Positions 15,758 through 42,797 of a stretch of 64,000 bases of DNA are shown in pieces. The notes below the pieces were generated by a model. It made no database searches, was not told where the DNA came from, and saw only the letters and a program-made list of their open reading frames with translations. Made by a program: the position numbers and the translations under genes. Source of the stretch: Armatimonadota bacterium (GTDB lineage: Bacteria > Sysuimicrobiota > Sysuimicrobiia > Sysuimicrobiales > Humicultoraceae). Location: NCBI GenBank assembly GCA_037443365.1, contig JBBIOM010000002.1, positions 1 to 64,000 on the forward strand, written 5' to 3'. How positions within the stretch are numbered: position 1 is the first letter of the stretch; the number at the start of each line of letters is the position of its first letter.

Positions 15758-16267
15758 CTACCGCGCGTCCACCAGCACGCGCTCAGCCACCACCGCCAGC
15801 GCAGCCTCGACCTCGGCCGACATGGCCGCGCCCGCCGAGAAGGAACGGCCCTCAATCCCGTAGACGATCAACCGCGGCGGCAGCCGGCCCAGCGCCCTGG
15901 CCAGTTCTACTGCCTCGGCGACTCCGAATGCATGGGTCGAGCACGCGCGGATCTGGGGAGGTATAGGTTGGCTGCAGGCGTCGAACCGCAGGATGCTACC
16001 CGGCGGCGCCCCGGAAGAGACCGCGTCGATCAGAATGACGGTCTCGTGGCCCTCCCAGAGGGTCACGAGGTTCGTCCCCTCGCCATCGTGCTCTACGACC
16101 GCGACTCGCCCGGGCTCCGCCATGTCAGGACATGCTGCGAGCATCTCTCTGACCCGGCGGGCAGCCACCAGCCCTGCCGCGTCGTCGGCCCTCGCGGCAT
16201 TGCCGATACCAACTACCAGCGTGGTGGAGCCGGCCACCCCACGACGGCTCCCCTCATTCCCGCACAA
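15758..16267 (-). CDS. Hydrogenase maturation endopeptidase (for group 3b enzyme)
   Basis: GIGN...DDAAG, IDAV, STHAFGV. Confidence 0.92.
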
Positions 16268-17552: not shown

Positions 17553-17556
17553 GGCT

Positions 17557-20884: not shown

Positions 20885-21424
20885 CTAGATGCGCTCTGCC
20901 TTCCTGTAGACCACGACGTCGCCCTCGATCTGGAGATCGTCAGGGTGGTACCTGGGGATGGGAAGGTCAAGCTGCTTGAACCTGACCGGGGCGACCTTCT
21001 TATCGACGAGCCCGAGCGCTGCCGCCACGCCGTAGACAATCGCCTCCGGGCGCGGTGGGCACCCAGGGATGTAGAAGTCGACCGGAACAACCTTCTCAAC
21101 GGCACCAATCACTCCGTAGGTATCGTGCCAGATCCCTCCCCCACACGCGCAGGATCCGACAGCAAAGACGAGCTTGGGCGCGGGCATAGCATCGTAGGCC
21201 CGCCGGAGTGCCCTTGCCGTCGCCCGTGACGCCGGCCCCTGGCATAGCATGACGTCCGCATGCCGGGGTGACCCGACAAGTTTGATCCCAAAGCGCTCCA
21301 CGTCATAGTAGGGTGTCAGCACGTTCAGGACCTCTATATCACAGCCGTTGCAGCCACCGCTGTTGGCGTGGTAGACCCAGATTGACCGCTTGAACGCTCG
21401 CCGGCAGATCTCACCGATGTTCAT
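20885..21424 (-). CDS. Group 4 hydrogenase small subunit (HycG/NuoB-like)
   Basis: GGCNGCDIE, SPRHAD, GSCA, IPGCPPRP. Confidence 0.93.
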   Translation of the reverse strand: MNIGEICRRAFKRSIWVYHANSGGCNGCDIEVLNVLTPYYDVERFGIKLVGSPRHADVMLCQGPASRATARALRRAYDAMPAPKLVFAVGSCACGGGIWHDTYGVIGAVEKVVPVDFYIPGCPPRPEAIVYGVAAALGLVDKKVAPVRFKQLDLPIPRYHPDDLQIEGDVVVYRKAERI

Positions 21425-21443: not shown

Positions 21444-21968
21444 TTAGTCTAGCTCTATCTCGATATCGCGGACCGCAGAGCCGCCGTCTAGGAACGGCCT
21501 TGAGGCGCACACCCACCGGTCGTTCTCGAGATCATCCAGCCGATAGCCCCTCAGCTTCAGCTGCTCCAGCACAGAGGGCTCCTTGAAGCACCTCCCGCAG
21601 CGCGTGCACGTTCCCATGAAGATCTCAAGGTGCTGCTCCAGGTCGCGGATGTCGTCGGTCGCGGTCTCAAACTCCCTGCTCATCGTGATCGCGCCCTCGG
21701 GGCAGACGTCGGCGCACCGGCCGCAGTAGGTGCACCGCAGCCCAAGGTACTTGATGATCCGCACCTCCTGGCTGGGGTCGAAGACGAGGATCTCGCGCGC
21801 AGGGCAGTTGTTGGCGCACCCGGCACACCCGATGCACTTCGCCCCGTCGAAGATGGGCCGCCCTCTGAACCGCTCCGGCGTCGGCCTTGGCTCGAACGGG
21901 TAAGAGAGCGTTGCCCTGCCCGCCTTGAGGCAGATGACCGCCTCCCTGATCTTGCTCAGTACCGACAT
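21444..21968 (-). CDS. HycF/NuoI-like ferredoxin subunit
   Basis: YPF...FRGRP, CIGCAGCANNCP, CTYCGRCADVCP, CTRCG. Confidence 0.92.
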   Translation of the reverse strand: MSVLSKIREAVICLKAGRATLSYPFEPRPTPERFRGRPIFDGAKCIGCAGCANNCPAREILVFDPSQEVRIIKYLGLRCTYCGRCADVCPEGAITMSREFETATDDIRDLEQHLEIFMGTCTRCGRCFKEPSVLEQLKLRGYRLDDLENDRWVCASRPFLDGGSAVRDIEIELD

Positions 21969-21980: not shown

Positions 21981-22895
21981 CTAGCCCCGAAGGACGGCGA
22001 CGACGAGCGCCACAACCGCGACAGCCAGCAGCATGGCATAGTGACGGATCGCCTGATCGATCCTGTAGCGAGCGTGCGTGGCGGCGACAACGGTCACGAG
22101 CAACACCAACACGAGAACCTTGACCAGCACCGCAAAGGTGCCCAGAGGGAACGGCCAGGTGCTACCCCAGGGCACGAAGAGCGCACAGAAGAGCGCCCCG
22201 TACACGAGCAGTTTCGCCATCCTGGCGTACTTGAACAGGGCCAGCTTAGGCCCTGAGTATTCCATCACGGCGCCTTCCATGATCTCCGTCTCCGCCTCTG
22301 TGGAATCGTAGGGCAACCGACCCACAAACGCTTGGAATGCGAGCAGGATTACCCCGAGCATGATCAAGCCGGGGATCGGGAGTCCCTCTCCGGCGTAGGC
22401 GGAGCCGCCAAGTACCACGTCGAGCCGTAGTGTGCCCGTCTGGACCGCCCCGAGCATCAGCGCAACGGCCAGGAGCGGCTCCAGGGTGATCATCGACATC
22501 ATCTCCCGGCTCATCCCCAGCAGCGAGTAGGTTGATCCGGCGGCCAGACCCGCCAGCAACACGGAGATGCCGGAGAGCCCAAGGAGGTAGACCAGCACGA
22601 GCGCGTCGCTCACCGCCCCGAGAGGAGGTCGAGTGCCCATAGGGATCATCGTTGCGACGGTCAGCACAGAGGCCAACGACAGCCCGGCGGCCAGCCGCTG
22701 CATTCCCGGGATGACGCCCGACTCGATGTCCTCTTTGCCGAAGAGCTTCAGAATGTCCAGGTACGGCTGGATCAAGGGCGGGCCCTGTCGGGACTGGATA
22801 CGCGCGGTGAGCCGCCTCACGATGCCCTCGAAGAGCGGAGCCGCAAGGAGCACCAGCACAACGTTGAAGGCGGCGATCGCGATTGCCGTGATCAT
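21981..22895 (-). CDS. HycD/NuoH-like membrane subunit
   Basis: ARIQSRQGPP..QPY.D, PYD..EAETEIMEG..EYSG. Confidence 0.93.
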   Translation of the reverse strand: MITAIAIAAFNVVLVLLAAPLFEGIVRRLTARIQSRQGPPLIQPYLDILKLFGKEDIESGVIPGMQRLAAGLSLASVLTVATMIPMGTRPPLGAVSDALVLVYLLGLSGISVLLAGLAAGSTYSLLGMSREMMSMITLEPLLAVALMLGAVQTGTLRLDVVLGGSAYAGEGLPIPGLIMLGVILLAFQAFVGRLPYDSTEAETEIMEGAVMEYSGPKLALFKYARMAKLLVYGALFCALFVPWGSTWPFPLGTFAVLVKVLVLVLLVTVVAATHARYRIDQAIRHYAMLLAVAVVALVVAVLRG

Positions 22896-24568
22896 TGCCG
22901 CACGCTCCTTGCAAGGCGTAGCAGCTCGTCCTGTCCGTACACCCTAACTTGCTCCGTGCGCACGTCCACGACCTCAAGGCGGTCCGTGCACGAGAAACAC
23001 GGGTCTATGCTGCCCAGGGAGATCGCCATGTCGGCAAGCCGCTGCTCCTTGATCATCTCGGGTATGCCCTGCAGGTTCTGGTAGGTCGGGGCCCGTACTC
23101 GCCATCTCCGGGGGCGGTTCTCCTCGCCCGTGACGACGAAGTGGTGTGCCTCACCCCGCGGCGCCTCCACGGAAGAAACCCCGATCCTGCCCGCGGGTGG
23201 CTCGCTGTCGACTACCGCCGCGATCGGCCCGTCGGGCATCTTCTCAAGGCACTGCCTGATGATCCTGATGGACTCGAAGACCTCGAGGACTCGCACCACG
23301 AGGCGGGACCAGACGTCGGCGCCCTCCTGGGTCACCACGTCGAACTCCACCCTATCATAGGCGGCGTAGGGATGGTCGCGCCTGCAATCTATGGCAACTC
23401 CCGCCGCCCTGGCGATCGGTCCTACCAGAGCCATCTCCTTGACAAGGGCCCGGTCGGCTATCCCGACACCCTTGGTCCGGCGCTGGATATTGCGGTCCCC
23501 GCGCACAGCACTGGCAACCGCCAGCCACTCCTTCTCAAGAGTGTCCAGCACATCGCGGATCTCCGACTTGAGTTCCGGGGTGATCTCCCATCGGACACCA
23601 CCGATCACGCAGAGCGCGTAGGTCTTGCGGTTGCCGCTGATCTTCTCGGTGACCCACATAATCGGCTCACGCATCCTGAAGCTCTGCATGAAGAGAGTGT
23701 CGAATCCCAGGATGTGGCTGGCCAGTCCCACCCAGAGCAGGTGGCTGTGCAGCCGCTCGAGTTCCAGCATCACTGTCCGGATGAACTCGGCCCGGGCAGG
23801 CGGCTTGATGGCCGCGGCCTGTTCCACCGCCTGCGCGTAGGTGACGTTGTGCACGGACCCGCAGATGCCGCAGATGCGTTCGGCCAGCATGGGTATCTCG
23901 TTGTACGAGAGCACCGATTCCGAGAGCTTCTCGATGCCGCGGTGAACCATGAAGCCGCGATACTCGCACCCCTTGACCGTTTCACCGTCAACGTAGAGCC
24001 GGAAGTGCGCGGGCTCGTCGAGCGTCGGGTGGAATGGGCCGAAGGGAACCACGATGCAGCCCTCAGGAGGGTCGCGGAATACGTACTGCCGACTGTCGTC
24101 ATAGCCGGGGGGTACGTAGTTCCACGGAACATCCTTCCTCAACGGATGCTCGCCCTCTGGCCACCCATCGGGCAGTACAAGGCGCCCAGGCTCGGTGTGC
24201 CCCACAGGCTCGATCCCCAGGAGATCCTTGAACTCGCGCTCCGCCCAGTTGGCAGCAGGCACACCATCCACGATGCTATCGACGGACGCGTGGTTCCCGC
24301 GAAGGTATGCCAGGATGCACGCAAGCACGCGGTCTCTATCGAACGCGAAGGTGTGGGCGACTAGGTAGCGCCCACTGTAGGGCCGGTCGTCCATCCCGAT
24401 GCTGGTCACGTACCTCGCATCGAGATCCCGGAAGATGTAACGGCAGGCATCCTTGATGGCAGCCGGCATCACGTAAGCGAACAGCCGGTCATCCTGGGGG
24501 ATGTCCGCGCGCTGGATCCTTGCCTCGAAGCGCGCCTTTAGCTGGCTCAGAATTTCGCTCGCTGTCAT
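22892..24568 (-). CDS. Group 4 [NiFe] hydrogenase large subunit (HycE-like, NuoC-NuoD fused)
   Basis: L1 ERICGICG, L2 DPCFSCTDR with C-terminal extension, EAPRGE; all four Ni-binding Cys present. Confidence 0.94.
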   Translation of the reverse strand: MTASEILSQLKARFEARIQRADIPQDDRLFAYVMPAAIKDACRYIFRDLDARYVTSIGMDDRPYSGRYLVAHTFAFDRDRVLACILAYLRGNHASVDSIVDGVPAANWAEREFKDLLGIEPVGHTEPGRLVLPDGWPEGEHPLRKDVPWNYVPPGYDDSRQYVFRDPPEGCIVVPFGPFHPTLDEPAHFRLYVDGETVKGCEYRGFMVHRGIEKLSESVLSYNEIPMLAERICGICGSVHNVTYAQAVEQAAAIKPPARAEFIRTVMLELERLHSHLLWVGLASHILGFDTLFMQSFRMREPIMWVTEKISGNRKTYALCVIGGVRWEITPELKSEIRDVLDTLEKEWLAVASAVRGDRNIQRRTKGVGIADRALVKEMALVGPIARAAGVAIDCRRDHPYAAYDRVEFDVVTQEGADVWSRLVVRVLEVFESIRIIRQCLEKMPDGPIAAVVDSEPPAGRIGVSSVEAPRGEAHHFVVTGEENRPRRWRVRAPTYQNLQGIPEMIKEQRLADMAISLGSIDPCFSCTDRLEVVDVRTEQVRVYGQDELLRLARSVRQ

Positions 24569-24597: not shown

Positions 24598-26553
24598 CTA
24601 CGAGACATCCCGGCCCGGCGGGACCTCTCCGGGCCAAGCGCCGGGCGCTGTGACGTGCTCGCGCGAAGCCCCCCCCAGCCACCGGAACCTGTGCTTGATC
24701 TCTCCGTAGAGGTTGTGTGCAACATAGCGGTGCGCCTCGGACTCCTGCGCGTAGCCGCACAGCCAAACCTCGGCGGTCCGCCGCGGCGCCGCTCCGAGCC
24801 GGGAGAGCCCCGCCGCGGCCAGCAGAAGCCCAGCCATGACCGCGGCAAGCACCAACGGCGCTAGGATCGCTTGACCGCCCAGGACCTGCAGGCCGGACCA
24901 CGGCAGCACCTCACCAAGCGGCTGCGTCATGGGACTCGCGAACATTGCACCCAGCCCAGAACCGCTCCCGGCGAGCGCGGCTCCAAACACCCCGTATGCC
25001 ACGACAGGAGCAACGCCGAAGAACACGCACAGGCCGGCAAGTGCCAGTTGCGGGGCCTGCATCGGCCAGTCGACCTCCATGGGGCCCCGGGCCGCGCGCC
25101 TTGCCACCAAGTCACTGGTGCGCGACAGAAAGGTCGCGCCGAAGAACTTCATAAACGAGGCAAGGGTCAGGACGCTGGTCAGGATCGCCACGACGCCGTA
25201 GACGGCTAGGTAGCCGGCCCATGGGCTACCCATGAAGGCAGCGACGTAGATGGTCCACTTGCTCGCGAAGCCGTTGAACAGGGGCACGCCAGCAATGGAG
25301 AAGGATGCCACAAGGGACGTGACCGCCGTTACCGGCATCGCCTTCATCAATCCCCCGAGCCTGTTCAGATCCTGGGTATCGGTGGCATTCAGCACGGAGC
25401 CGGCGTTGAGGAACAGCAGGCTCTTGAACGTAGCGTGGTTGGCAGTGTGGTACAGCGCCCCGTACAGCGCCAGCGTGGCGAGGGCGGCTGCGCCTGCTCC
25501 CTGATCTGTCTGGCCGACGAGGGCCAGGGCCGCCCCCATTCCAAGCACTATGTACCCCACCTGCCCGATACTGTGAAAAGCAAGCAGGCGCTTGGTCTGC
25601 TCTTGCCTGAGGGCCTGCATCGTGCCAACGAACAGCGTAACCGCACCGAGGGTGGCCAGCACGCCTCCCCAGACCGCGGCTGGGAAGAGCGCGATCGCCT
25701 CTGCCGGCACAAGCCAGAAAAAGGACCGCATCAGGCCGTAGACGCCGGTCTTGATCATGACGCCCGACAGCAGGGCACTGACTGGGGACGGAGCGGCAGG
25801 ATGGGCATCGGGCAGCCACATCTGACCGAATGGCCAGACTCCCGACTTGATGCCGAAGCCGATCAGCATCAGAACAAGCGCGGCGGCCACCGCACCCGCG
25901 TCGGCCTGGAGCAAGCCGGGCATCGCTGCGCCGAGCGCATCGAAGTCATACTTCGCGAGCCCGCCGTCAGGCGCGGTCTCGCCGCGGCCCAATATCGCGG
26001 CACCCATCATCACGAGCACGCAGGCGATCTGCATCATGAAGAGGTAGCGGTTGGCCGCGGCGACGTTCTCGCGCTTCCGGTTCTCGTAGCGTATCAGCGC
26101 AAACGACGGGAGCGTCATCAGTTGCCAGAAGACGAAGAAGAAGAACATCAGGTCTGTCGTGGTAAGGACTCCGTACATCCCGCCGACGAAGAGCAGAAAG
26201 TGCGGGTAGTAGCGCCCCACGCCGTAATCTTTGTAGTGCTGCATGTATCTCACGGAGTATAGCGCCGCCAGTAGCGCGACTGCCGCCACCAGGACAAGGA
26301 ACACGGCGCTCAGACCATCCACGTGAATCCTCAGGCTGGAGCCAAGCCGCGGCAATGACAGATAGGACTCGGGAAGGTCGTGACCTCCTGTCAACACCCT
26401 GGCGGACGCCAGGAAGATCAGCCCGCTGGAGAGGGCAACCGCCCCGAAGGATGCCCAGCCCGCAGCGACCTTGGACCTGGACGCAAGCAGACTGACCACG
26501 GCGCCGACGGTACATACAGCGATCGCGAGCATTACGGCGAAGGGTGCGGTCAT
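24598..26553 (-). CDS. HycC/HyfB-like antiporter-type membrane subunit
   Basis: WLPDAHPAAPSPVSALLSGVMIK, KRLLAFHS, HATFKSLLFL, NGFASKW. Confidence 0.92.
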   Translation of the reverse strand: MTAPFAVMLAIAVCTVGAVVSLLASRSKVAAGWASFGAVALSSGLIFLASARVLTGGHDLPESYLSLPRLGSSLRIHVDGLSAVFLVLVAAVALLAALYSVRYMQHYKDYGVGRYYPHFLLFVGGMYGVLTTTDLMFFFFVFWQLMTLPSFALIRYENRKRENVAAANRYLFMMQIACVLVMMGAAILGRGETAPDGGLAKYDFDALGAAMPGLLQADAGAVAAALVLMLIGFGIKSGVWPFGQMWLPDAHPAAPSPVSALLSGVMIKTGVYGLMRSFFWLVPAEAIALFPAAVWGGVLATLGAVTLFVGTMQALRQEQTKRLLAFHSIGQVGYIVLGMGAALALVGQTDQGAGAAALATLALYGALYHTANHATFKSLLFLNAGSVLNATDTQDLNRLGGLMKAMPVTAVTSLVASFSIAGVPLFNGFASKWTIYVAAFMGSPWAGYLAVYGVVAILTSVLTLASFMKFFGATFLSRTSDLVARRAARGPMEVDWPMQAPQLALAGLCVFFGVAPVVAYGVFGAALAGSGSGLGAMFASPMTQPLGEVLPWSGLQVLGGQAILAPLVLAAVMAGLLLAAAGLSRLGAAPRRTAEVWLCGYAQESEAHRYVAHNLYGEIKHRFRWLGGASREHVTAPGAWPGEVPPGRDVS

Positions 26554-27062
26554 GACCCTGTACTCCTCGTGTGTTCTTCACGGCCTGTGCGAAGCGTCTC
26601 GCCAATCAGCACCCTGAGGGCGTCCATCGACTCCCTGACCTCTCTTGACAGCCCTCCGGCGCGGCGGAGTCGACCGGGCCTGACCCCCAGGAGCCAGACC
26701 CGGGAGTCGCATTGCGACTCGATGAGGCGCGCGAGCGTGCCCAGCGAGAACTTGTGCGTGGAGAGTTGCGGGTAGGCTGCCACCATCTCCTCCTGCCGGA
26801 GTAGGATCGCTGAGCCCGCAGGAGCGTCCACCTCCACGGCGTCAAGGAACACCACGCTGTCGAACCCCTCCCTTGCGATCTTGCCGACCCACCGCTCGGG
26901 TGCAGTACCGGCGCTTATCACCACCGCCGTCTCGGCTCCGTCGAGGGCTTCCGCCAGTCTCACGCCGAAGCCATCGTCCCCAAGGTCAACGTTACCTACA
27001 CCCACCAGGCAGACCTTCCCCGCCAGGCAGCGGCGCAGATCAGCGCGCAGATCTCCTGTCAA
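26550..27062 (-). CDS. HycI-like hydrogenase maturation protease
   Basis: VGVGN..GDDGFG, GTAPE, DAV, STHK. TTG start overlaps the upstream stop. Confidence 0.88.
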   Translation of the reverse strand: MTGDLRADLRRCLAGKVCLVGVGNVDLGDDGFGVRLAEALDGAETAVVISAGTAPERWVGKIAREGFDSVVFLDAVEVDAPAGSAILLRQEEMVAAYPQLSTHKFSLGTLARLIESQCDSRVWLLGVRPGRLRRAGGLSREVRESMDALRVLIGETLRTGREEHTRSTGS

Positions 27063-27907
27063 ATGACCTCTCCCAGCCTGCGGATCTGCTCGTAGGTGAA
27101 GACCGGTCCGTCGGTGCAGACATATGCCACGCCTATGCAGCAGTGGCCGCACTTGCCGACACCGCACTTCATGTACCGCTCGAGCGTGGAGACTATGTTG
27201 CCGTCAGCATAGCCCATCCCCTGGAGATCCCGGAGGACAAACCGAAACATCACGGGCGGGCCGCAGACGAAGGCTGTCGTGTTCTCGATCGGCATCTGGA
27301 CGTCCGGGCGCTTGAAGAGCGACCCGACGACGCCCACGTGACCCCTCCACTGTGAGTCCGCGGAGTCAACGGTCAGCCAGCAGTCAAAGGCAGGGTCCTT
27401 CTGCCACCGCTCGAGATCCTCGACATACATCAGGTCCTTGGGCGTACGCGCGCCGTAGAAGACCTGGATCCTCCCAAACCTCTCCCGGTTGTGAAGGGCG
27501 TAGACTATGCAAGAACGCAGCGGTATCAGCCCGATGCCGCCGGCGACGAACACGAGGTTGCGCCCATAGTAGCTCTCCATCGGAAAGCCGTTGCCGTAGG
27601 GACCGCGCACTCCTACGGCCGCCCCCGGCCGCAACTCGTGCAGCGCCGCGGTCACACTGCCGACCCTGCGAACGGTGAAGAACGTCTCTGCCTCGGTGGG
27701 GCTAGGCGGCAGCGATATCGCTATCTCCCCGGCCCCGAAGACAGAGAGCATGGCGAACTGTCCGGGCATGAACCGCCCAAACGCTTCCTGCTCGGCCGGA
27801 TCCTCGAACCGCCAGTAGAAGGTCTTGACGTCCTCGATCTCGTCCACCACCCGCTCGATGGTGGCGGGCTTTGGCAGGTAGATGTTCTCAGTCTGCTGCG
27901 GGCTCAT
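27059..27907 (-). CDS. AsrB/HydG-like FAD/NAD(P)-binding 2Fe-2S oxidoreductase
   Basis: PGQF, RGPYGNGF, AGGIGLIPLRS, CGPPVM, ERYMKCGVGKCGHC. Confidence 0.92.
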   Translation of the reverse strand: MSPQQTENIYLPKPATIERVVDEIEDVKTFYWRFEDPAEQEAFGRFMPGQFAMLSVFGAGEIAISLPPSPTEAETFFTVRRVGSVTAALHELRPGAAVGVRGPYGNGFPMESYYGRNLVFVAGGIGLIPLRSCIVYALHNRERFGRIQVFYGARTPKDLMYVEDLERWQKDPAFDCWLTVDSADSQWRGHVGVVGSLFKRPDVQMPIENTTAFVCGPPVMFRFVLRDLQGMGYADGNIVSTLERYMKCGVGKCGHCCIGVAYVCTDGPVFTYEQIRRLGEVI

Positions 27908-29004
27908 CGCGTCTCATTCCTCGCTGCCGCCGCTCTCCGGATGATCTCTACTACGCTAGGCATGCCGACGTCACCGTGGCAGACCTCCACGCACCGGCCG
28001 CATCCGACGCATGCCACCGACAGCTCGCGCTGAACGAAGTAGTGCGACAACTTGCGGAAGAATCGCCGGTTCCGCCGGTCGTGAACCGCCTTCCGGGGGT
28101 TGTGTCCTCCGGCCATGCGCGTGAATCCGGTAAGCGCGCACGAGTCCCACAGCCGGATGCGCTCGGTAACCCCATCGGCCGTGCTTCGGTCTGTGACGGT
28201 GAAGCAAGTGCATGTGGGGCAGACATAGCTGCACCCGCCACACTCGAGGCACCGGTTGCCGATCTCCTCCCATGTCTTCTCGCCCACCTCGCCGAGGCTG
28301 ATCAGACGAGAGGCCATCGAGTACCAGCTTGTCACATCCTTAAAGCGCTTGCGGACCTCTGAGAGGATCTCCCTCCGCCTGGCCACGTGTGCCGGCGTGG
28401 CCTGCCTGCATGCCGGGTGCGAGAGCACCGCCTCTCCCGCAGGCGAGCCCGCCACGATCATGTACTCCCCGCCGAGGTGCATGAGCTGGAGATCGAACAG
28501 CTCACGGGCGGCAGGGCCGGTGTCGGCGCAAACGCAGAAGCAGTCGTCGTCAATGTCGAGCTCGGTGTCGGTGCAGACGACGTTCACGAAAAAGAGATTC
28601 CTGCGAAGCCTCTCGTAGTAGGTGTCCCGGTACTCCCTACCCAAGAAGAAGCGGTCGAGGTGGCCGATGGCGGCGAGGTCACAGGAGCGGATCCCAAAGA
28701 TCGCCAGCCTCGGTTCATCCTCCGGCACATCTATCCGCAGCTGTCCCCCACCGGTCCTCCTGGTCGTCAGGATGGTCCGCCTCGCCGTGAGCAGCCGGTG
28801 GATTTGCGGCAGGACGTACCGCTTGGGCGGGTAGTAGGGGTTCGGCAGGTGAAGCTGCACGCTGTCGCGATTCGCGTCGGTGACGACATCGAAGACTGTG
28901 TCGCGACCCCTCCCGAAGAACGGGGCTACGACCTGATATCTGTCCCTCCGGAGGAAGTCCACGATCTTCAACACGTCCGCTCTGTCTATGACTCTGGCCC
29001 GCAT
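27904..29004 (-). CDS. AsrA/HydB-like 4Fe-4S protein
   Basis: GIRSCD, CFC, CLECGGCSYVCPTCTC, WDSC, CVGCGRCVEVC. Confidence 0.92.
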   Translation of the reverse strand: MRARVIDRADVLKIVDFLRRDRYQVVAPFFGRGRDTVFDVVTDANRDSVQLHLPNPYYPPKRYVLPQIHRLLTARRTILTTRRTGGGQLRIDVPEDEPRLAIFGIRSCDLAAIGHLDRFFLGREYRDTYYERLRRNLFFVNVVCTDTELDIDDDCFCVCADTGPAARELFDLQLMHLGGEYMIVAGSPAGEAVLSHPACRQATPAHVARRREILSEVRKRFKDVTSWYSMASRLISLGEVGEKTWEEIGNRCLECGGCSYVCPTCTCFTVTDRSTADGVTERIRLWDSCALTGFTRMAGGHNPRKAVHDRRNRRFFRKLSHYFVQRELSVACVGCGRCVEVCHGDVGMPSVVEIIRRAAAARNETR

Positions 29005-29006
29005 CG

Positions 29007-31043
29007 CTACACCCTCTCAACCCTGGCGCAGATCGGCCAGTCCGAGCTGCCCCCACTGCTATCCGGCTCTCCGAAGAGCTGGCCGATAACCTCGTGCAGG
29101 AAGAAGGGGATGAATATGGTCCCGCGTTTGACGCTGCCGGTTACGCGGGCCGTGCTCACGGCCGACCCGTTCAATGTGGTGATCCTAACCTTCCCCGAAT
29201 CACGAACCCCGAGCTCACGCGCATCCTCAGGATTGATGTCCACGAAGCCCTCCGGGTAGTCGAGTTGGAGGACCCTGTGCTCACGCTTGAGCGTCTCGCT
29301 GTGCTGGACCAGGACGTTGTGGTGCCAGTAGTAGAGCGACCTGCCCACTATCAGAGCGAACGGGTACTCGGCAATCATGCACGATCCGGCCATCTCAGGC
29401 ATTGGGAAGGGCGCCAATCTGAACGGCTCCGAGGGCGCCTCGTCCGCGAACAGCAGCGCCGTTCCGAGAGGCCTGTCTGCCGTGCAAGGCCACTGCCGCC
29501 CGTACTCGCGCGAGAGATTATCGTAGCTGGCCCCCTCGTAGAACGGCACCGCCCGCCTTATCTCGTCCATCACTTGCGAGGACGAGGTGTAGGACCAGCG
29601 TGCGCCGAGCCTGTTCGCTACGCGCACGATCTGATCCCAGGCAGGTAACGGGCCTGGGGGAGGGTCTATGACCTTCTCGGCAAGCTGTATTCGCCGCTCG
29701 GTGCTCGTGAAGGTGGCCCTCTCCTCTCCGAAGGCCACGACCGGCAGGATCACGTCGGCGCGTTGCGCCGTCTCGGTCATGAACAGGTGCTGAACGACCA
29801 TGAAGTCCAACCTGTCGAGGGCCGCGACGATCGAGGCACGCGCGTAGGCGGTGGCGGGGTCGTGGCGGTCGATCCACAGTGCCCGGATCGAGCCGTCGAA
29901 TGCTGCCTCAATCATGCCTCGAGTGGTCAGGCCGGGCCTGGTGGAAATCGGTGCACCCCAGAGAGACTCGAAGTGCCTGCGCGCCGCCTCGTCGTTCACC
30001 GAGGCGTAGCCAGGCAGGAGTTGGGGCTGTACTCCAACGTCGCAGGTCCCCTGGAGGTTGTTATGCTCGGCCAGGGGCATGACTCCCGTGCCCTTCCTAC
30101 CGACGTTACCGGTCAGCAGCGCCAGGTCCACCATGCTCCTGATGGTATCGGCCCCGCGCGCCTCCGCGCCGGTGGCGTACATGATCATGCCGCGCTGCCC
30201 GGAAGCGAAGGCGATGGCCGCGCTCTCCAGAAGACCGGGGGGGATGTCGCAGGCATCCGCCACCCACAAGGCATCGTAGGCGTGCACGGAGGCAAGGAAC
30301 GCCTCGTAGTTCTGACAGCGGCTCTTGAGGAACTTGAGATCCGCAAGGCCGCGGTCCACGATCACCTTGGCCATGGCGCCGTAGAGCAGCCGGTCGGTCC
30401 CAGGCCTAGTTTGCAGGAAGAAATCGGCATGCTCGGCTATCCTGTGCCGCCTCGGATCGATGACTATGAGCTTCGCCCCGCCCATCTTCGCGCGGATGAC
30501 CCTCCCGCCGATGGTCGGCAACTGCAGGGCCAGGTCCACGCCGTTCACCACTATGACGTCGCTCTGCTCGATGTCGGCGATGGAGTTGGTTGCCGCGGGA
30601 ACTCCCAGCATCTCCATGAGGACCTCGATGCTGGCGGAGCGATAGGCGCCCATCCCGTGATCCACATTGTTCGTGCCGACCACCGCCCGGGCAAGCTTCT
30701 GGAGAAGGAAGCCCTCCTCGTTCGAGCAGCGAGGTGAGTTGATGAACCCGATCGCGTCAGGGCCATGCTCGCTGCGGATGTGCTTGAGGCGGGCGGCGAC
30801 GAAGCTCGTGGCCTCGTCCCAGGACGCCTCCCTGAACCCCCCCCCGTCGCGGATGAGTGGTTGCTTGAGCCGATCCGGCGAGCTGGCGACCTCATGTACG
30901 TTCCAGCCCCGCACGCAGATCCGGCCCTGGTTGGCGGGGTGGGACATGCTCGGGTAGCCCCCCGTGATCCTGAAGCCGTCCTCCTCCAAGTAGATTCCGC
31001 ACCCAACGCCACAGAAGGTACAAGTGGTTAGTATGTGCGCCAT
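29007..31043 (-). CDS. FdhF-like molybdopterin oxidoreductase family protein with non-canonical active site
   Basis: CTFCGVGC...C cluster, GTNNVDH, TNSI, IDPR, TETA, TERRIQ present. The C/U-H motif reads Y-R and PLRG reads PLAE. Confidence 0.9.
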   Translation of the reverse strand: MAHILTTCTFCGVGCGIYLEEDGFRITGGYPSMSHPANQGRICVRGWNVHEVASSPDRLKQPLIRDGGGFREASWDEATSFVAARLKHIRSEHGPDAIGFINSPRCSNEEGFLLQKLARAVVGTNNVDHGMGAYRSASIEVLMEMLGVPAATNSIADIEQSDVIVVNGVDLALQLPTIGGRVIRAKMGGAKLIVIDPRRHRIAEHADFFLQTRPGTDRLLYGAMAKVIVDRGLADLKFLKSRCQNYEAFLASVHAYDALWVADACDIPPGLLESAAIAFASGQRGMIMYATGAEARGADTIRSMVDLALLTGNVGRKGTGVMPLAEHNNLQGTCDVGVQPQLLPGYASVNDEAARRHFESLWGAPISTRPGLTTRGMIEAAFDGSIRALWIDRHDPATAYARASIVAALDRLDFMVVQHLFMTETAQRADVILPVVAFGEERATFTSTERRIQLAEKVIDPPPGPLPAWDQIVRVANRLGARWSYTSSSQVMDEIRRAVPFYEGASYDNLSREYGRQWPCTADRPLGTALLFADEAPSEPFRLAPFPMPEMAGSCMIAEYPFALIVGRSLYYWHHNVLVQHSETLKREHRVLQLDYPEGFVDINPEDARELGVRDSGKVRITTLNGSAVSTARVTGSVKRGTIFIPFFLHEVIGQLFGEPDSSGGSSDWPICARVERV

Positions 31044-31094: not shown

Positions 31095-31763
31095 TCATCC
31101 CGCCTTTCCAAGCGCCTCTCGTCCCGTCTCAATCCATGAAATCCACGCGTCGATCCCCTCTCCCGTCCGCGCCGAGAGGGGGAACAGCGGCGCTTGCGAG
31201 ACCGCCCGCAGCCCCGCGGTGAACGCGTCGACCGAGAATCCCGTGGCCCGCAGGAGGTCGGTCTTGTTCAGCACCACCGCTGAGGCCCTCGCAAATGTGC
31301 TCGGGTACTTCAGCGGCTTATCGTCTCCCTCCGGCACGCTGGCCACGACGGCGCGGAGGTGTTCCCCCAGGTCGTAGGCCGTGGGACAGACGAGGTTGCC
31401 GACGTTCTCAACGAACAGCACCTTGATCTGGTCAAGCGGCAGCCGCAGGAGGGCGGTTCGCACAAGGTTGGCGTCGAGGTGGCAGGCGTCGCCGACCAGC
31501 CGCGTCTCGATCTGCACCGCTGGCACCCCGCACCGCCCGATTCGCTCGGCGTCGCGCGACGTGGCGATGTCACCCTCGATAACGCCCATCGAGACCCGCA
31601 AGTGCAGGGCTGCCGCCGTTGCCTCCAGCAGCGCGGTCTTGCCGCTGCCCGGGGATCCGATGATGTTGATCGCAAGGACTCCCGCCCGATCCAGCGTTGC
31701 GCGCACTTCCTCAGCCAGTGCGTCATTGGCCTTCAGAACCCTCTCGACGATCTCGATTCGCAT
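31095..31763 (-). CDS. hypB: Hydrogenase nickel incorporation GTPase HypB
   Basis: GSPGSGKT, CHLDA, ENVGNLVCP, EGDDKPLKYP, NKTD. Confidence 0.96.
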   Translation of the reverse strand: MRIEIVERVLKANDALAEEVRATLDRAGVLAINIIGSPGSGKTALLEATAAALHLRVSMGVIEGDIATSRDAERIGRCGVPAVQIETRLVGDACHLDANLVRTALLRLPLDQIKVLFVENVGNLVCPTAYDLGEHLRAVVASVPEGDDKPLKYPSTFARASAVVLNKTDLLRATGFSVDAFTAGLRAVSQAPLFPLSARTGEGIDAWISWIETGREALGKAG

Positions 31764-32008
31764 CACGGCTCTCCCTGGACCCACTCGAGCTGCAGCTCGA
31801 ATCCGTCGGCGTGGCGCACCTCGAGCTGGGCAGCGCCGACCACCGGGCCCTGACGCAGGATCTCGAACGCGAAGGCAAGCGCGTCCGGAACCACTCCACT
31901 GTACCGTCCCACGGCAACACCGACGCTTTGAACTGCGCTCAGGCCATTGCGCTCCGCGACCTCTGCCACCTGCCGTAGCAGCGAGTGGGCGATCGATACC
32001 TCGTGCAT
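31763..32008 (-). CDS. hypA: HypA-family nickel chaperone lacking the Zn-finger domain
   Basis: MHEVSIA, G..SGVVPDAL.FAF, terminal G.EL.L strand; 81 aa with no Cys; coupled to hypB. Confidence 0.85.
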   Translation of the reverse strand: MHEVSIAHSLLRQVAEVAERNGLSAVQSVGVAVGRYSGVVPDALAFAFEILRQGPVVGAAQLEVRHADGFELQLEWVQGEP

Positions 32009-32019: not shown

Positions 32020-32817
32020 TCAGAACGTCTGGTTGGCCAGCGCCATCATGCCGCGGGTGTAGCGTTCGAGCATAATGGCCTGATCAGGCCGGAGCCGCGC
32101 GCAGGCCCATCGCCAGTGGAACGCGATCAAATCGCCGGGGGCGGCGTCATCCATCTCGGGATCGGAGTCCAGCGTCCTCTGCACCTGCTCGGGACGCGGG
32201 TCGCCGAACCCCAGACGCCCCTCCCTGATGACTATGGGCCGGTAGGAGACGATGAAGGCGCCGGGCTGGATTGCGGTGATCTCGCCGCAGCTTATCCGGC
32301 ACAGGTCCAGGGCCATATCGCCATGCGGCAGGCCAGTCCGGCGCGAGACATCGAACACATGAAAGGCGTGGTGCGCCCTCGCTCCAGCAGGGGGCTTGCT
32401 CACGAGCAGCTCCATTGCGGAACCACCCAACTGCCCGCGGAATCTCTCATGCAGATGACGCGCGTACAGCGTCCAGTCCACGTGCTCGAGAAGGTCGTTG
32501 CCAATCCAGTACGCCTCGACAACGCCCGGATCGAACGGGTCCTTGATCCCGTTGGAGTCGGCTATAAGACGCAAGTACGGGTAGGCGCCCGCGAACGCCC
32601 GCAGGTGGCGCCGCAGCGACTCGTCACCGGTCCCTTCACGAATGGAAGCGAGCAGCTCGGCGTTCGCATCTCCACCGCAGTAGCCGAGCCGGTTGGGCAT
32701 GTACGCGAATCGCGAAAATAGCAACATCCCTGCCAGGGGAGAGCGGGGTGCGCTGACGCCCGATCCCACGTCAACAAGGAGGCCGGAACGCTGGGATGAA
32801 TCGCCGAGGGTTCTCAT
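32020..32817 (-). CDS. DUF6390-like hydrogenase-associated protein
   Basis: FSRFAYMPNRLGYCG, FAGAYPYL..IA, VEAYWIGN, HHAFHVF, CRI, HWRWAC. Start uncertain (32817 or 32727). Confidence 0.75.
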   Translation of the reverse strand: MRTLGDSSQRSGLLVDVGSGVSAPRSPLAGMLLFSRFAYMPNRLGYCGGDANAELLASIREGTGDESLRRHLRAFAGAYPYLRLIADSNGIKDPFDPGVVEAYWIGNDLLEHVDWTLYARHLHERFRGQLGGSAMELLVSKPPAGARAHHAFHVFDVSRRTGLPHGDMALDLCRISCGEITAIQPGAFIVSYRPIVIREGRLGFGDPRPEQVQRTLDSDPEMDDAAPGDLIAFHWRWACARLRPDQAIMLERYTRGMMALANQTF

Positions 32818-32857
32818 GCGAGTTGCCTCGTCCATATTACAATAAAGGTGCGCACCC

Positions 32858-32889
32858 GTGGGGTATCCGTTCATGAGAGGATTCGCCAC
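32858..32889. promoter_or_regulatory. 32-bp imperfect palindrome (putative operator)
   Basis: GTGGGGTATCCGTTCATGAGAGGATTCGCCAC, centred on TCATGA, 24/32 positions symmetric, next to an AT-rich -10-like tract. Confidence 0.5.
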
Positions 32890-32923
32890 AGACAGATGCC
32901 CTGCGGACCGCCTACCGCGCGCC

Positions 32924-33790
32924 CTACCTGCCCGCGCGGCCCTGATCGGCTGCCGCAGGATTCAGCCACAGGTCGATATCTCTACCCATCGCCATCAGGC
33001 CCACCGTGGTCAGCACTATGGCTAGCGCCGGCGGAGTCGCCCACCACAGCCAGGCGTTGGTCAAGAAGAGCAACGGATATCCGAACGCCTGGTGGAGGGT
33101 CAACCCCCAGCTGACGCGTCCGGGGTCGGCCAGCCCGAGCAATCCCAGTCCGGCCTCCATGACGACGGCCCAGCGCATGGTGAGCAGGAACTTGGTGAAC
33201 AGGATCGGTGCAACCTCTGGCAGGATGGCGGTTCTCACAACCCTTGCCTCCGATGCTCCAAGCGCCCTCACCGCCGAAACGTACTCTTTTCGGACCGTCG
33301 AGAGAACCTGCGCTCGGACCACCCGCGCGTAGGCGGCCCAACTGATCACAAGGAGGGCCAATGACACCGACCAGAGCCCCGGCCCAAGAAACACAACCAA
33401 CAGCACCACAAGCGGGACGCTGGGGATCGCTAGGAACAGGTCGACCACAGCTAAGATCAGCTCTCGTCCCCGCGGAGCCATGGCCGATGCCGTGCCCACT
33501 GCGGCGGCCATGGCCGTGGAAGAGGCGGCCACCAGGAAACCCACCAGCAGCGAGGTTCGCGCGCCGTGGACGAGGTGGCTGTACAGGTCCTGGCCGAGCA
33601 CGTTGGTCCCCAGCGGCAGGCCCCTACCCGGAGGCGTCACGGGAGGACCGACGGTCAAACCGGGCGGGTTATGGGCTACCAGCGGCGCCGTCGCCGCGAG
33701 CACCACGATGACCAGGAGCAGGATCGCCCCCGACGCAGCGGTAGCGTGCCTCTGCCAGGCCCCTGGACCGAGGGTCACCCACCCCGACAT
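32924..33790 (-). CDS. ABC transporter permease (DppC/NikC-like)
   Basis: LGTNVLGQD, GARTSL, EYV..VRALGAS, SWG. Confidence 0.92.
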   Translation of the reverse strand: MSGWVTLGPGAWQRHATAASGAILLLVIVVLAATAPLVAHNPPGLTVGPPVTPPGRGLPLGTNVLGQDLYSHLVHGARTSLLVGFLVAASSTAMAAAVGTASAMAPRGRELILAVVDLFLAIPSVPLVVLLVVFLGPGLWSVSLALLVISWAAYARVVRAQVLSTVRKEYVSAVRALGASEARVVRTAILPEVAPILFTKFLLTMRWAVVMEAGLGLLGLADPGRVSWGLTLHQAFGYPLLFLTNAWLWWATPPALAIVLTTVGLMAMGRDIDLWLNPAAADQGRAGR

Positions 33791-34752
33791 CAGGGCCCCA
33801 CGGTCCTGGGGTCAAGCCGCGCGCTGAGCAGGTCGAGCATGGTGTTAATCGTCAGCACGGCGAGGCTCGAGACCAGGAAGACCCCCTGCATCAAGGGATA
33901 GTCACGCGCGACTATGGCCTCGAATAGGAGTGATCCCATCCCAGGGTATGCGAAGACCCTCTCGACGACCGCAGCACCGGCCACTGCCGCGCCCAGTCTC
34001 AAGCCGAACAGGGTCGCCACGGGCGGCAGCGCGTTCCGCAATGCGTGCCATACGACCCGTCGCTCTGGAAGCCCCTTGGCCCTGGCGGTCGCCAGGTAGC
34101 GCTCGCCCATTACGGGGACGAGCGCGTTTCGCACCAGCAAGGCAAAAGAGGGCGCAAGCGCAGCCACTAGCGCGAGGCCGGGGAGGGTCGCATGCCAGAT
34201 AGCGTCGCCCACGGTCCGCGGCCACCCCCCCAAGTCGACGAACGGGGTGAGCGCGCCACCGGAGGGGAAGATCTGGAATCGCGAGGCAAGAAGCACTATG
34301 AGGAGCATGGCCACCAGGAACTCGGGTAGGGCCCCCACCCCCACAGAGGCGGCCATCGCAATGCGGGCGCAACGGGCACGACCATGCCAGGCCGCTGCCC
34401 AACCCAGAAGGCCGCCGAGAGCCGCGGCCATCACCACGGCCCCACCTACCAGGAACAGAGTCCATAGCAGCCGCTCCACCACCACAGCCGCAACAGGGCG
34501 GTGCGACGTAAGTGAGAAGCCCATGTCGCCTCGCACGAGCCCGGCAATGTAGCGCCCGAACTGCTCGTGCGTGGGGAGGTCCAGGTGGTAGGTCTCGACC
34601 AGCGCGCGGTATGCCGCGGCCGGCAGCAGGAGGGCGTCGTCCCCACCCGGCGCCGCCGGGCTGCCGGGCAGCAAGCGAGGCACAACGAAGTTGAGTACCA
34701 CCACGGTCAGCGCGAGCCCGGCGAAGCGCGCCAGACGCAGCGCCACGGCCAT
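33790..34752 (-). CDS. ABC transporter permease (DppB/NikB-like)
   Basis: PRLLPG, GDMGFS, TARAKGL, HALRNA, RDYPL. Confidence 0.93.
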   Translation of the reverse strand: MAVALRLARFAGLALTVVVLNFVVPRLLPGSPAAPGGDDALLLPAAAYRALVETYHLDLPTHEQFGRYIAGLVRGDMGFSLTSHRPVAAVVVERLLWTLFLVGGAVVMAAALGGLLGWAAAWHGRARCARIAMAASVGVGALPEFLVAMLLIVLLASRFQIFPSGGALTPFVDLGGWPRTVGDAIWHATLPGLALVAALAPSFALLVRNALVPVMGERYLATARAKGLPERRVVWHALRNALPPVATLFGLRLGAAVAGAAVVERVFAYPGMGSLLFEAIVARDYPLMQGVFLVSSLAVLTINTMLDLLSARLDPRTVGP

Positions 34753-34759
34753 CCCTGGC

Positions 34760-36298
34760 CTAGCGGGGACCTATCAGGGCGAGCTTGTTTTCGACCAACG
34801 GGATCCCGTTCATGATGCCCCCCGGGGTATCAACAGGGCGCAGCTTGCGGCTGTCATGCACCCAGTAGAACCGGCGGTAGTAAAGGGCAAGCGTGGGGAG
34901 CTCCTCGGCCAGGATCTCCTGCATCCTGACGACAATGGCGCGGCGGGCGGCCGCATCGACAGAACGGGCTTGTTCTGTGGCCAGCCGGAGGAACTCGGTG
35001 TGGTTGAACCCTGGCGACTGGCCGAAGAGGTTGGCCTCTCCCCCGGCGAACCACCTGCGCAGATAGTCCGGATCCCCGCCTGCTCCTATGTGAAAGGTCA
35101 GCGCCATCTGGAACTTCCCCTCGGAGACCAGGGCGGCGCGTGTGCGGGCGTCCACGGTCCGAACGCTGATCTCCATGCCAGCGCGCCTGAGCATATCCTG
35201 CATCACAATGACCACCGGCGACGGACTGGACAGCAGCTCGATCTGGGGCGAGCTGTAGCCGGCCGTCGCCACTAGGTTCCGCGCCTGCACCGGGTCGTAG
35301 GGGTAGCGGCGGACACGCGGCGCATACCACCTGTCGACCGGTGAGACAACGCCGGGACTTCCCGGGATGCCGGGCCCGCGCGTCATGAGCGTGGCAAGTT
35401 GGGTTCGATTGATGCCGTAGGCAACCGCCTGCCGCGCTTCCCGTCGGTCGAACGGCGGTCGGGCAAGGTTGAATATCAAGCGCGCAGTGGACAAGGGCTC
35501 GCTCTGCCACACCCGCAAGTGTGGGTGTGCCGAGAACGCTGGTACCACGTCGTAGGTATCCGCCATCGCAGCATCAATCTGACCGTTCTGCGCGGCCAGC
35601 ACCTGCCGCTCGGTGGGAATCACGGCGTAGTGGATCTCGTCGTACAGCGGCCTCCCACGGAAGTAGCCTGGATTCGCCCGGAACCGGTAGTCCCCGGCGC
35701 CGGGTCGGTAGTCGGCCAACAGATACGGACCCGTGCCGGCGGCAGTCTCGACGGATTGGGCCTTCCTGGGCTCGCGTACGTCCTTCCAGATGTGCTCTGG
35801 TATGATGGGCACGACTCCCGCGATGTCCTCGATGAACGGGGCAAAGGGCTCCGTGAGCGTGAACGTGACGGTCCGACTCCCCTCGGCCCTGACGGATTGC
35901 ACAACGCTTGTGTCGGCCCAGACGAACGGGTGCTCGCGGTAGTACTCAAAGGAGAACTGCACATCGCGGGCCGAGAAGGGCCTGCCGTCGTGCCAGCGGA
36001 TGCCAGGACGGAGCGCGAATGTGTAGCGCCTCCCGTCGGGTGACACCCGCCAGGATTCGGCCAGCCACGGTATCGCGCCGCTGCGGTCCTTCCAGGTCAG
36101 GGTGTCGTAGATCAGCGAGAGCCGCACTAGCCCGCCAGGACCCAGCGACGAGACGGCAAATGGCGTTGGAAAGCCGACGTCCGTCCACCATGCCAGCCGT
36201 AGCACCCCCGAGGGCAGCGGCCCGGCACCGGCCGGAAGGACGCAAGTTGCTGCCACGAGAAATATGGCCGCCAACATGACCAACCTGACGTTAATCAG
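34760..36298 (-). CDS. Family 5 ABC substrate-binding protein (peptide/nickel)
   Basis: PWLAESW, WHDGRPFSARDV.FS, GTGPY; signal peptide. Start is CTG 36298 or TTG 36283. Confidence 0.9.
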   Translation of the reverse strand: MINVRLVMLAAIFLVAATCVLPAGAGPLPSGVLRLAWWTDVGFPTPFAVSSLGPGGLVRLSLIYDTLTWKDRSGAIPWLAESWRVSPDGRRYTFALRPGIRWHDGRPFSARDVQFSFEYYREHPFVWADTSVVQSVRAEGSRTVTFTLTEPFAPFIEDIAGVVPIIPEHIWKDVREPRKAQSVETAAGTGPYLLADYRPGAGDYRFRANPGYFRGRPLYDEIHYAVIPTERQVLAAQNGQIDAAMADTYDVVPAFSAHPHLRVWQSEPLSTARLIFNLARPPFDRREARQAVAYGINRTQLATLMTRGPGIPGSPGVVSPVDRWYAPRVRRYPYDPVQARNLVATAGYSSPQIELLSSPSPVVIVMQDMLRRAGMEISVRTVDARTRAALVSEGKFQMALTFHIGAGGDPDYLRRWFAGGEANLFGQSPGFNHTEFLRLATEQARSVDAAARRAIVVRMQEILAEELPTLALYYRRFYWVHDSRKLRPVDTPGGIMNGIPLVENKLALIGPR

Positions 36299-42781: not shown

Positions 42782-42797
42782 GACGTGACTCCGCGGG

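Follow-up and report, generated by a model that had tools for sequence, protein, structure and literature searches.

The 64,000-nucleotide stretch of the Armatimonadota contig JBBIOM010000002.1 that we analysed, hereafter the window, encodes a 678-residue protein, here termed FdhL, which resembles the selenocysteine (Sec)-containing formate dehydrogenase (FDH) FdhF of Escherichia coli and whose gene stands at the head of an operon for a formate hydrogenlyase (FHL)-type [NiFe] hydrogenase. Comparative analysis indicates that FdhL is probably a conserved, catalytically dead descendant of an FdhF-type FDH, most probably devoid of cofactor, which has kept the fold and the N-terminal [4Fe-4S] cluster. 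The catalytic residues have been lost, their replacements are conserved across a whole family of relatives, the gene order downstream of fdhL is preserved, the associated hydrogenase has intact Ni-Fe motifs, and some of the carrier genomes have no detectable biosynthesis of the molybdenum cofactor (Moco). We are confident that FdhL is not an FDH, and consider it likely that it needs no molybdenum- or tungsten-pterin. The evidence also leans, with less assurance, towards a fuller model in which FdhL is a Mo/W-free, NuoG-like Fe-S scaffold or relay subunit of an NAD(P)H-linked, ion-translocating hydrogenase.

Active-site replacements and the FdhL family

E. coli FdhF requires three residues, Sec140, His141 and Arg333. 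The active-site segments of FdhL were aligned by phmmer against FDHs of solved structure, and by MAFFT with E. coli FdhF (P0127, its TGA read as U) and the Sec-containing FDH of the same genome (P0129); both alignments are gapless across these segments. In them GTNNVDHGMGAYRSAS of FdhL pairs with GTNNVD(C/L)CARV-U-H(G/A)PS of the FDHs, with Tyr134 and Arg135 at the positions of Sec140 and His141, and VMPLAEHNNLQG pairs with VNP(V/L)RGQ(N/V)NVQG, with Ala325 and Glu326 at Arg333 and Gly334; the segment at the active-site Arg reads PLAEHNN, as against PxRGQNN in the FDHs. Furthermore, ICVRG stands for the LCLKG of FDHs, placing Arg45 at Lys44 of FdhF. The Sec/Cys-His pair and the active-site Arg that characterize FDHs are both missing from FdhL, while the four cysteines of the N-terminal cluster and the four-domain fold are retained. 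The frame is fully open, with zero in-frame stops in the translation of its coordinates (Table 1); the listed open reading frame begins at a TTG 9 nucleotides upstream, and the ATG start yields MAHILTTC, in agreement with the family consensus MAHxLTTC.

At the level of the whole protein FdhL is 32% identical to E. coli FdhF in the MAFFT alignment, which contains no large insertions in FdhL that would fill the former cofactor cavity. Its AlphaFold model (predicted local distance difference test score, pLDDT, 83.7) superimposes on the FdhF structures 1aa6, 1fdi and 7z0t_A with template modelling (TM) scores of 0.87-0.88 in Foldseek, so that the four-domain FDH fold appears to be retained; both methods bear on the fold, and the presence of a cofactor is not visible to either. 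The best NCBIfam model for FdhL is TIGR01591 (formate dehydrogenase alpha), at 585.5 bits, below the curated equivalog cut-off of 666.25; a genome-wide profile search likewise puts FdhL at 585 bits, below the cut-off, and the Sec-containing paralog passes at 680.6.

A first-pass annotation, made from the nucleotide sequence of the window, had already read Tyr at Cys/Sec and Arg at His of FdhF in a gapless alignment, PLRGQ changed to PLAEH and LCxKG to ICVRG, an intact 4Fe-4S motif and no in-frame TGA. All of these readings, with their codon positions, are reproduced by our alignments and translation. Its conclusion that the protein is not a formate dehydrogenase is likewise upheld by the missing Sec/Cys, His and Arg, by the TIGR01591 score and by the occurrence of the substitutions throughout the family.

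This family was examined in an alignment of the 120 best homologs from a word-index search that returned thousands of FDH-like matches, each of the 120 being at least 57% identical to FdhL. Position 134 (Sec140 of FdhF) is Tyr in 102 sequences, His in 13 and Phe in 5; position 135 (His141) is Cys in 53, Arg in 43, Ser in 9, Gly in 6, Thr in 5 and Ala in 4; and position 325 (Arg333) is Thr in 91, Ala in 26 and another residue in 3. Both Glu326 (Gly334) and Arg45 (Lys44) are present in 120 of 120, cluster cysteines 8, 11, 15 and 43 are each conserved in 118-119, and Tyr572-Trp573 is also invariant or nearly so. Conservation on this scale, in so large a family, places the pattern far beyond chance.

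The distribution of the family was surveyed with two family-specific peptide patterns in one genome per species. They matched 200 stretches, 195 of which encode an FdhL relative, placing the family in at least 195 species genomes; the best 80 loci come from six phyla, namely Armatimonadota, Methylomirabilota/NC10, Verrucomicrobiota (including a Methylacidiphilum metagenome-assembled genome, MAG), Acidobacteriota, Planctomycetota and Thermodesulfobacteriota. When proteins were clustered at 50% identity, the family comprised one full-length representative, fragments and one divergent member (P0131, 47%), and the next full-length representatives outside it were at most 40% identical to FdhL. In a 68-sequence tree the family forms a clade with a Shimodaira-Hasegawa-like approximate likelihood-ratio (SH-aLRT) support of 100 and a stem length of 0.43. 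Another lineage with altered residues, P0139/P0147, is its sister (support likewise 100), and both are nested among other non-canonical FdhF-like lineages; the canonical K-C-H-R-G-Q-G signature, found in 36 of the 68 rows as counted from the row labels, is placed elsewhere in the tree.

The first-pass annotation had allowed that the substitutions might be strain-specific decay of fdhF, that is, a pseudogene in the making. This is already refuted with near certainty: the frame is intact, the substitutions are shared by 120 of 120 homologs from six phyla, synteny is kept and the clade is well supported.

FdhF-like lineages without the Cys/Sec-His-Arg set are numerous beyond this family (P0132, P0133, P0137, P0139, P0143, P0144, P0147, P0151, P0152, P0154, P0188, P0198, P0207, P0234 and P0244). 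Six of the non-canonical representatives outside the family (P0137, P0143, P0144, P0154, P0198 and P0234) likewise have Tyr in the Sec column, and several lineages with this Tyr keep Asp419/Asp468-type residues. A sister relationship of the family to NuoG was considered and rejected on phylogenetic grounds, the NuoGs branching apart on long branches. FdhL scores 138.4 bits against TIGR01973 (NuoG), below the cut-off of 470.05, and has no N-terminal 2Fe-2S/4Fe-4S extension. Since the NuoGs do not group with the family, the putative loss of cofactor would be convergent and independent of that in NuoG.

The cofactor pocket and Moco biosynthesis in carrier genomes

E. coli NapA has the same cofactor as FDH and a different substrate, and positions shared by FDHs and NapA are therefore likelier to be related to the cofactor than to the substrate. 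Accordingly, cofactor-type positions were defined as residues common to canonical FDHs and E. coli NapA, an assignment made from conservation and general knowledge rather than from coordinates. Among the 120 family members Asn170 is replaced by Asp in 120, His175 by Leu in 115, Met291 by Thr in 117, Asp419 by His in 114 and Asp468 by Ala in 111, E. coli NapA keeping both Asp; the lysine of the C-terminal PE(F/Y)K of FDHs and NapA is deleted, and Gly393 of FDHs (Cys in NapA) is Arg in 120. Gln174 (120) and Glu294 (119) are further fixed residues of the family. Both Asp are also lost in the sister lineage P0139/P0147 and kept in other non-canonical lineages, e.g. P0132 and P0143. The replaced residues are of the kind predicted to contact the guanosines of the cofactor. 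Furthermore, the 18 of 120 members that have Phe or His instead of Tyr134 argue against a Tyr-metal bond.

A second line of evidence comes from a co-occurrence census of Moco biosynthesis in 50 of the 80 carrier genomes, mostly those with longer loci. MoaC and MoaE were each found in 30 of the 50 carriers and MoeA_N in 33, while MoaA was above cut-off in 28, with 2 additional fragmentary or frameshifted copies. In profile searches MoaA, MoaC, MoeA and MoaE all went undetected in the same 17 of the 50 genomes (G010, G015, G016, G017, G019, G028, G029, G031, G032, G033, G035, G036, G039, G040, G041, G046 and G049), and mixed patterns of these genes were seen in just five (G024, G030, G037, G038 and G050). 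The 17 span 2.8-7.5 Mb and include Verrucomicrobiota, two Chthonomonadales and the Methylacidiphilum MAG. A control marker, ribosomal protein S8, was present in 46 of the 50 carriers and in 16 of these 17. In several Moco-positive relatives (G011, G018, G022, G023 and G044) the four Moco genes lie on four separate contigs, and the joint absence is thus not explained by one missing contig.

In all 17 of these genomes FdhL is of full length (669-680 residues) and carries the family signature together with the complete set of four cluster cysteines. The molybdopterin oxidoreductase profile PF00384 matches only two proteins in 15 of them, the second being NuoG in 4 of 4 genomes sampled; G033 and G039, the other two, show additional weak PF00384 matches in frames of 975-1300 residues. 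We also considered Cys135, present in 53 of the 120 family members, as a shifted metal ligand, and rejected it for want of a link with Moco genes: the Tyr-Cys combination was seen in 12 genomes without these genes and in 11 with them, and FdhL itself has Arg135.

The operon and a putative NAD(P)H-linked hydrogenase

The gene fdhL opens a nine-gene operon on the minus strand (Table 1), in which it is followed by genes for sulfhydrogenase beta-like and gamma-like proteins, a HycI-type protease and the subunits of an FHL-type [NiFe] hydrogenase. The beta-like protein has a single PDB match, the beta subunit of Pyrococcus furiosus sulfhydrogenase I (9nez_B), and shares 31% identity with the HydB of a group 3b hydrogenase also encoded in the window. 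The gamma-like protein has 9nez_C as its top PDB match (1.4e-59) and is 41% identical to the group 3b HydG; its best models are PRK08345/HydG/ShyC/AsrB, all below their equivalog cut-offs. On these similarities the pair can be predicted to form an NAD(P)H module of the HydB/HydG, AsrA/AsrB type, with nucleotide specificity predicted at the level of NAD(P)H only. The large subunit of the hydrogenase is closest to subunit 5 of E. coli FHL (HycE, 7z0s_E, 401.9 bits), and the alignment shows RICGICGSVH and DPCFSCTDR. Together with the NuoB-, NuoI- and NuoH-like subunits, the antiporter-like subunit and HycI, these motifs assign the predicted enzyme to the group 4, FHL-type [NiFe] hydrogenases. No HycB (ferredoxin) model matched any of the nine operon genes, and the HydB/HydG-like genes occupy the place of HycB. 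The longest hycI frame overlaps the 3' end of the hydG-like gene by about 109 nucleotides; the true start is probably internal, further downstream, because the protease model matches only from residue 54.

This arrangement is conserved. Among 60 loci that extend at least 10.4 kb from the start of fdhL, with a gene called present at 40% identity or more, the eight genes that follow fdhL are all present and in order in 50. Of the ten incomplete loci, nine are without one gene, mostly hycI (just under 40% identity) or hycG (displaced past the end of the locus by a second hyfB), and L062 is without three; in 79 of 80 loci fdhL is immediately followed by the HydB-like gene. In nine loci (L035, L039, L043, L049, L052, L060, L070, L074 and L078) the operon has a tandem pair of HyfB-like antiporter genes where the others have one. 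FdhL itself is among the least conserved subunits of the operon, with a median identity of 58% compared with 66-79% for the HydB-like, HydG-like, HycE, HycF and HycG proteins, which fits a scaffold better than a catalytic subunit.

The gene set can be mapped onto complex I. In this comparison the HydG-like (FAD, 2Fe-2S, NAD(P)H) and HydB-like (Fe-S) proteins would correspond to NuoE/F and the N-terminal half of NuoG, FdhL to the cofactor-less, molybdopterin-like half of NuoG, and HycF, HycG, HycE, HycD and HyfB to NuoI, NuoB, NuoCD, NuoH and NuoL. Electrons would travel between NAD(P)H and the Ni-Fe site by way of FAD, the 2Fe-2S cluster, the clusters of the HydB-like protein, possibly the cluster of FdhL, HycF and then HycG, with FdhL acting as a scaffold and perhaps an Fe-S relay, like the relic molybdopterin domain of the complex I subunit NuoG. 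Rather than a formate hydrogenlyase, the enzyme would be an NAD(P)H:H+ or H2:NAD(P)+ oxidoreductase that translocates ions and could run in either direction. The standard potentials at pH 7 are about -320 mV for NAD(P)H and -414 mV for H+/H2, and H2 evolution from NAD(P)H would for this reason have to be driven by the ion gradient or proceed at very low H2 pressure; running from H2 to NAD(P)+, the complex could pump ions. We tentatively propose that the operon represents an uncharacterised class of complex-I-like, membrane-bound, ion-translocating oxidoreductases of this kind, in which a cofactor-less FDH would be the NuoG-like scaffold between a flavin module and an FHL-type hydrogenase.

The resemblance of FdhL to the C-terminal domain of NuoG therefore lies in the cofactor-less molybdopterin fold (with cofactor loss predicted in the case of FdhL), the Fe-S cluster and an NAD(P)H-flavin module joined to homologues of NuoB/C/D/H/I/L, whereas FdhL differs from NuoG in being a separate polypeptide without the N-terminal 2Fe-2S/4Fe-4S domain. 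Cofactor-less molybdopterin-like subunits are already known in the form of the NuoG/Nqo3 domain, QrcB and ActB of alternative complex III (ACIII). With FdhF of E. coli formate hydrogenlyase-1 (1aa6/1fdo, 7z0s/7z0t) FdhL shares the fold, the N-terminal 4Fe-4S motif and an FHL-type [NiFe] hydrogenase partner; unlike FdhF, it is without Sec140, His141, Arg333 and Lys44, has no HycB encoded beside it and belongs to a family that also occurs in Moco-less genomes. The two genes after fdhL are homologous to those for the beta and gamma subunits of P. furiosus sulfhydrogenase I (9nez, group 3b), but in the window their products are paired with a group 4 hydrogenase of the membrane-bound kind and with a relic of FdhF instead of a soluble alpha/delta dimer.

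Several observations weigh against a cofactor-free scaffold, beyond the manner in which the cofactor-type positions were assigned. The carriers are MAGs without completeness estimates, and the argument from Moco consists of a concordant absence and one marker control. Nine carriers that do have Moco genes also show FdhL plus at most one other PF00384 protein, and FdhL may be a Moco client in some lineages. The source genome itself makes Moco: a MoeA-MobB fusion, for biosynthesis of Moco and of its molybdopterin guanine dinucleotide form, is encoded about 10 kb from fdhL. Two segments persist, the pterin-proximal one in the form [HQ]NNLQGxCD and the DPR motif (D196 in 110 and R198 in 120 of the 120). 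At the replaced positions of the pocket stand near-invariant residues of polar or charged character (E326, R393, H419, D170, Q174 and E294), a degree of conservation that exceeds the needs of a passive scaffold and could mark a new ligand site. Contact of FdhL with the HydB-like protein or HycF, a place for its cluster on the electron path and NAD(P)H as substrate are all steps that we infer. The nine Moco-positive carriers just mentioned are G011, G022, G023, G030, G042, G044, G045, G047 and G048, and their other PF00384 match is presumably NuoG.

The foremost rival of the scaffold model is an alternative, unlikely in our estimation, in which FdhL is pterin-free yet not passive, its remodelled polar pocket (Tyr134, Asp170, Gln174, Glu294, Glu326, Arg393 and His419) binding another ligand, cofactor or substrate and providing a second catalytic or regulatory input beside NAD(P)H. 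It would account for replaced residues that are themselves invariant or nearly so, for a fold retained down to its funnel-forming domains without large cavity-filling insertions, and it is compatible with the Moco-less genomes. However, no candidate ligand is known, the sequence shows no established cofactor-site motif, the redox subunits are better conserved than FdhL, and the invariant charged residues could be salt bridges standing in for cofactor phosphates. The first-pass annotation had left the choice between a NuoG-like relay and a Mo/W enzyme with new ligation; the replaced FDH/NapA residues, the Moco-less carriers and Phe or His at position 134 favour the relay. An active enzyme with a bis(pyranopterin guanosine dinucleotide) (bisPGD) complex of Mo or W, ligated by the Tyr oxygen or without any protein ligand, acting on a substrate other than formate and feeding the hydrogenase, is improbable. 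The complete FDH fold with its FS0 cluster, the predominance of Tyr (102 of 120), the [HQ]NNLQG and DPR segments, the Moco genes near fdhL in the window, and the six other lineages with Tyr at the Sec column, in which Asp419/Asp468-type residues are retained, would all suit such an enzyme. Moreover, arsenite oxidase (AioA) is a Mo-bisPGD enzyme without a protein ligand, from which it is generally known that this ligand is dispensable. FdhL resembles AioA in that none of Cys, Sec, Ser and Asp occupies the canonical ligand position, but AioA retains its cofactor-binding residues and needs Moco. In the FdhL family, by contrast, position 134 varies to Phe and His, position 135 is not conserved, substitution or loss affects Asp419, Asp468, Asn170, His175, Met291 and the C-terminal Lys, and FdhL is intact in the 17 carriers without MoaA, MoaC, MoeA and MoaE.

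Still less probable is that the operon remains a formate hydrogenlyase in which FdhL oxidises formate by an unconventional mechanism. Its hydrogenase part is indeed closest to E. coli FHL, and peatland Acidobacteria have been reported from metagenomes to carry a formate hydrogenlyase of the "fdhF, hyf operon" type (PMC6018796), a cluster that may belong to the FdhL family. Against this stand the absence of all three residues required in FdhF, the sub-cut-off TIGR01591 score, an NAD(P)H module encoded in the stead of a HycB-type partner, the Moco-less carriers and a separate, canonical Sec-containing FDH of the FdsA type in the genome. Since the genome already has this canonical enzyme, FdhL is expected to do something other than oxidise formate. 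The scaffold model thus remains the reading we prefer. The operon context, an NAD(P)H module joined to an FHL-type hydrogenase, did not figure in the first-pass annotation, and it alters the likely role of the whole complex.

A comparable gene set has been described in Saganbacteria, in an "enigmatic" group 4 [NiFe] region (Matheus Carnevali et al. 2019; 10.1101/328856). To go by the available part of that account, the region holds a molybdopterin oxidoreductase called FDH by hidden Markov models though not by phylogeny, alongside cooF and asrA-/asrB-like genes; relatives are also reported from Omnitrophica, and no function was assigned there. Its gene set is similar to that of the fdhL operon, with cooF as an extra, and that part of the account does not settle whether the same protein family is concerned; it contains no residue analysis, Moco co-occurrence or distribution. 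Aside from this region, our literature search found no account of the family's residue pattern, its Moco-less occurrence or the NAD(P)H-linked reading, the literature on group 4f hydrogenases concerns other clusters, and PMC6688271 contains nothing of relevance.

Source annotations routinely name members of the family formate dehydrogenase, YjgC or FHL. If FdhL cannot oxidise formate, predictions of formate-driven H2 production that rest on this family in peat, soil, groundwater and methanotroph genomes would be wrong, and many annotated "formate hydrogenlyases" of Verrucomicrobiota, Acidobacteriota, NC10, Armatimonadota and Planctomycetota would not use formate. We know of no membrane-bound [NiFe] hydrogenase that is wired directly to NAD(P)H; the enzyme proposed here could drive H2 evolution from NAD(P)H with the help of an ion gradient, or conserve energy from H2-dependent reduction of NAD(P)+. 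It would also be a second instance, independent of the first, in which a molybdoenzyme became a cofactor-less Fe-S scaffold beside complex-I-type modules, a present-day repetition of the step by which NuoG of complex I is proposed to have arisen, and would open the transition from FHL to complex I to experiment.

Features of the window

The features discussed above and the other genes of interest are collected in Table 1. A survey of sequencing runs listed four DNA entries, all from one subsurface-metagenome study, and no RNA entry. Directly upstream of the operon lies hypB, and the order DUF6390-hypB-fdhL is retained in the relatives L001 and L002, which suggests a link of the DUF6390 protein to hydrogenase maturation. 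A complete group 3b (sulfhydrogenase-type) hydrogenase, hydB-hydG-hydD-hydA, directly follows the group 4 operon downstream; in L002 the group 3b hydrogenase lies upstream of fdhL instead.

Table 1. Positions of fdhL, its altered residues, the operon and other genes in the window
Feature	Coordinates	Strand	Basis or remark
fdhL, FdhF-like protein (P0001, 678 residues)	29007..31043	minus	Fe4S4, Molybdopterin and Molydop_binding domains (Pfam)
4Fe-4S (FS0) motif: Cys8, Cys11, Cys15, Cys43, all present	30915..31022	minus	translation and MAFFT; Arg45 (30909-30911) comes after
Tyr134-Arg135	30639..30644	minus	at FdhF Sec140-His141 (phmmer, MAFFT); Tyr134 codon 30642-30644
Ala325-Glu326	30066..30071	minus	at FdhF Arg333-Gly334 (phmmer, MAFFT); Ala325 codon 30069-30071
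Stretch with Arg393 (29865-29867), His419 (29787-29789), Ala468 (29640-29642)	29640..29867	minus	replace Gly, Asp, Asp of canonical FDHs
Sulfhydrogenase beta (HydB/AsrA)-like Fe-S subunit	27904..29004	minus	Fer4_22; best NCBIfam models HydB, ShyB, AsrA, all below cut-offs
Sulfhydrogenase gamma (HydG/AsrB)-like NAD(P)H/FAD/2Fe-2S subunit	27059..27907	minus	NAD_binding_1 and DHODB_Fe-S_bind domains
HycI-type hydrogenase maturation protease	26550..27167	minus	TIGR00072 match over residues 54-188
HyfB/NuoL-like antiporter-type membrane subunit	24598..26553	minus	Pfam/NCBIfam profiles
HycE-like [NiFe] large subunit (NuoC-NuoD fusion)	22892..24568	minus	both Ni-Fe cysteine motifs
HycD/NuoH-like membrane subunit	21981..22895	minus	
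HycF/NuoI-like 2x[4Fe-4S] subunit	21444..21968	minus	
HycG/NuoB-like hydrogenase small subunit	20885..21424	minus	
HypB nickel-insertion GTPase	31095..31784	minus	TIGR00073, 241 bits against a cut-off of 121
DUF6390 protein, between hypB and a nickel/oligopeptide-type ABC transporter (NikA-, NikB-, NikC-like)	32020..36283	minus	
Group 3b [NiFe] hydrogenase, hydB-hydG-hydD-hydA	16254..20359	minus	hydB at 19235-20359
MoeA-MobB fusion	41021..43111	minus	
ADP-forming acetyl-CoA synthetase-like gene	42798..44987		after the MoeA-MobB fusion
Canonical Sec-containing FDH, FdsA type, 964 residues	62282..65176	minus	runs past the window end at 64000; L083:1453-4344
Two-subunit class I fumarate hydratase	60804..62376	minus	
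2-oxoacid:ferredoxin oxidoreductase, alpha/beta pair	12297..14311	minus	

The FdsA-type paralog of FdhL has an N-terminal 2Fe-2S/4Fe-4S domain, an in-frame TGA encoding U380, the adjoining His and PLRGQ, the last in keeping with the PLRG that the first-pass annotation had read in it, and a NuoF-like frame lies upstream. From U380 and this NuoF-like frame it follows that the genome decodes Sec and has a true NAD-type FDH. The fumarate hydratase and the 2-oxoacid:ferredoxin oxidoreductase fit an anaerobic or microaerobic lifestyle.

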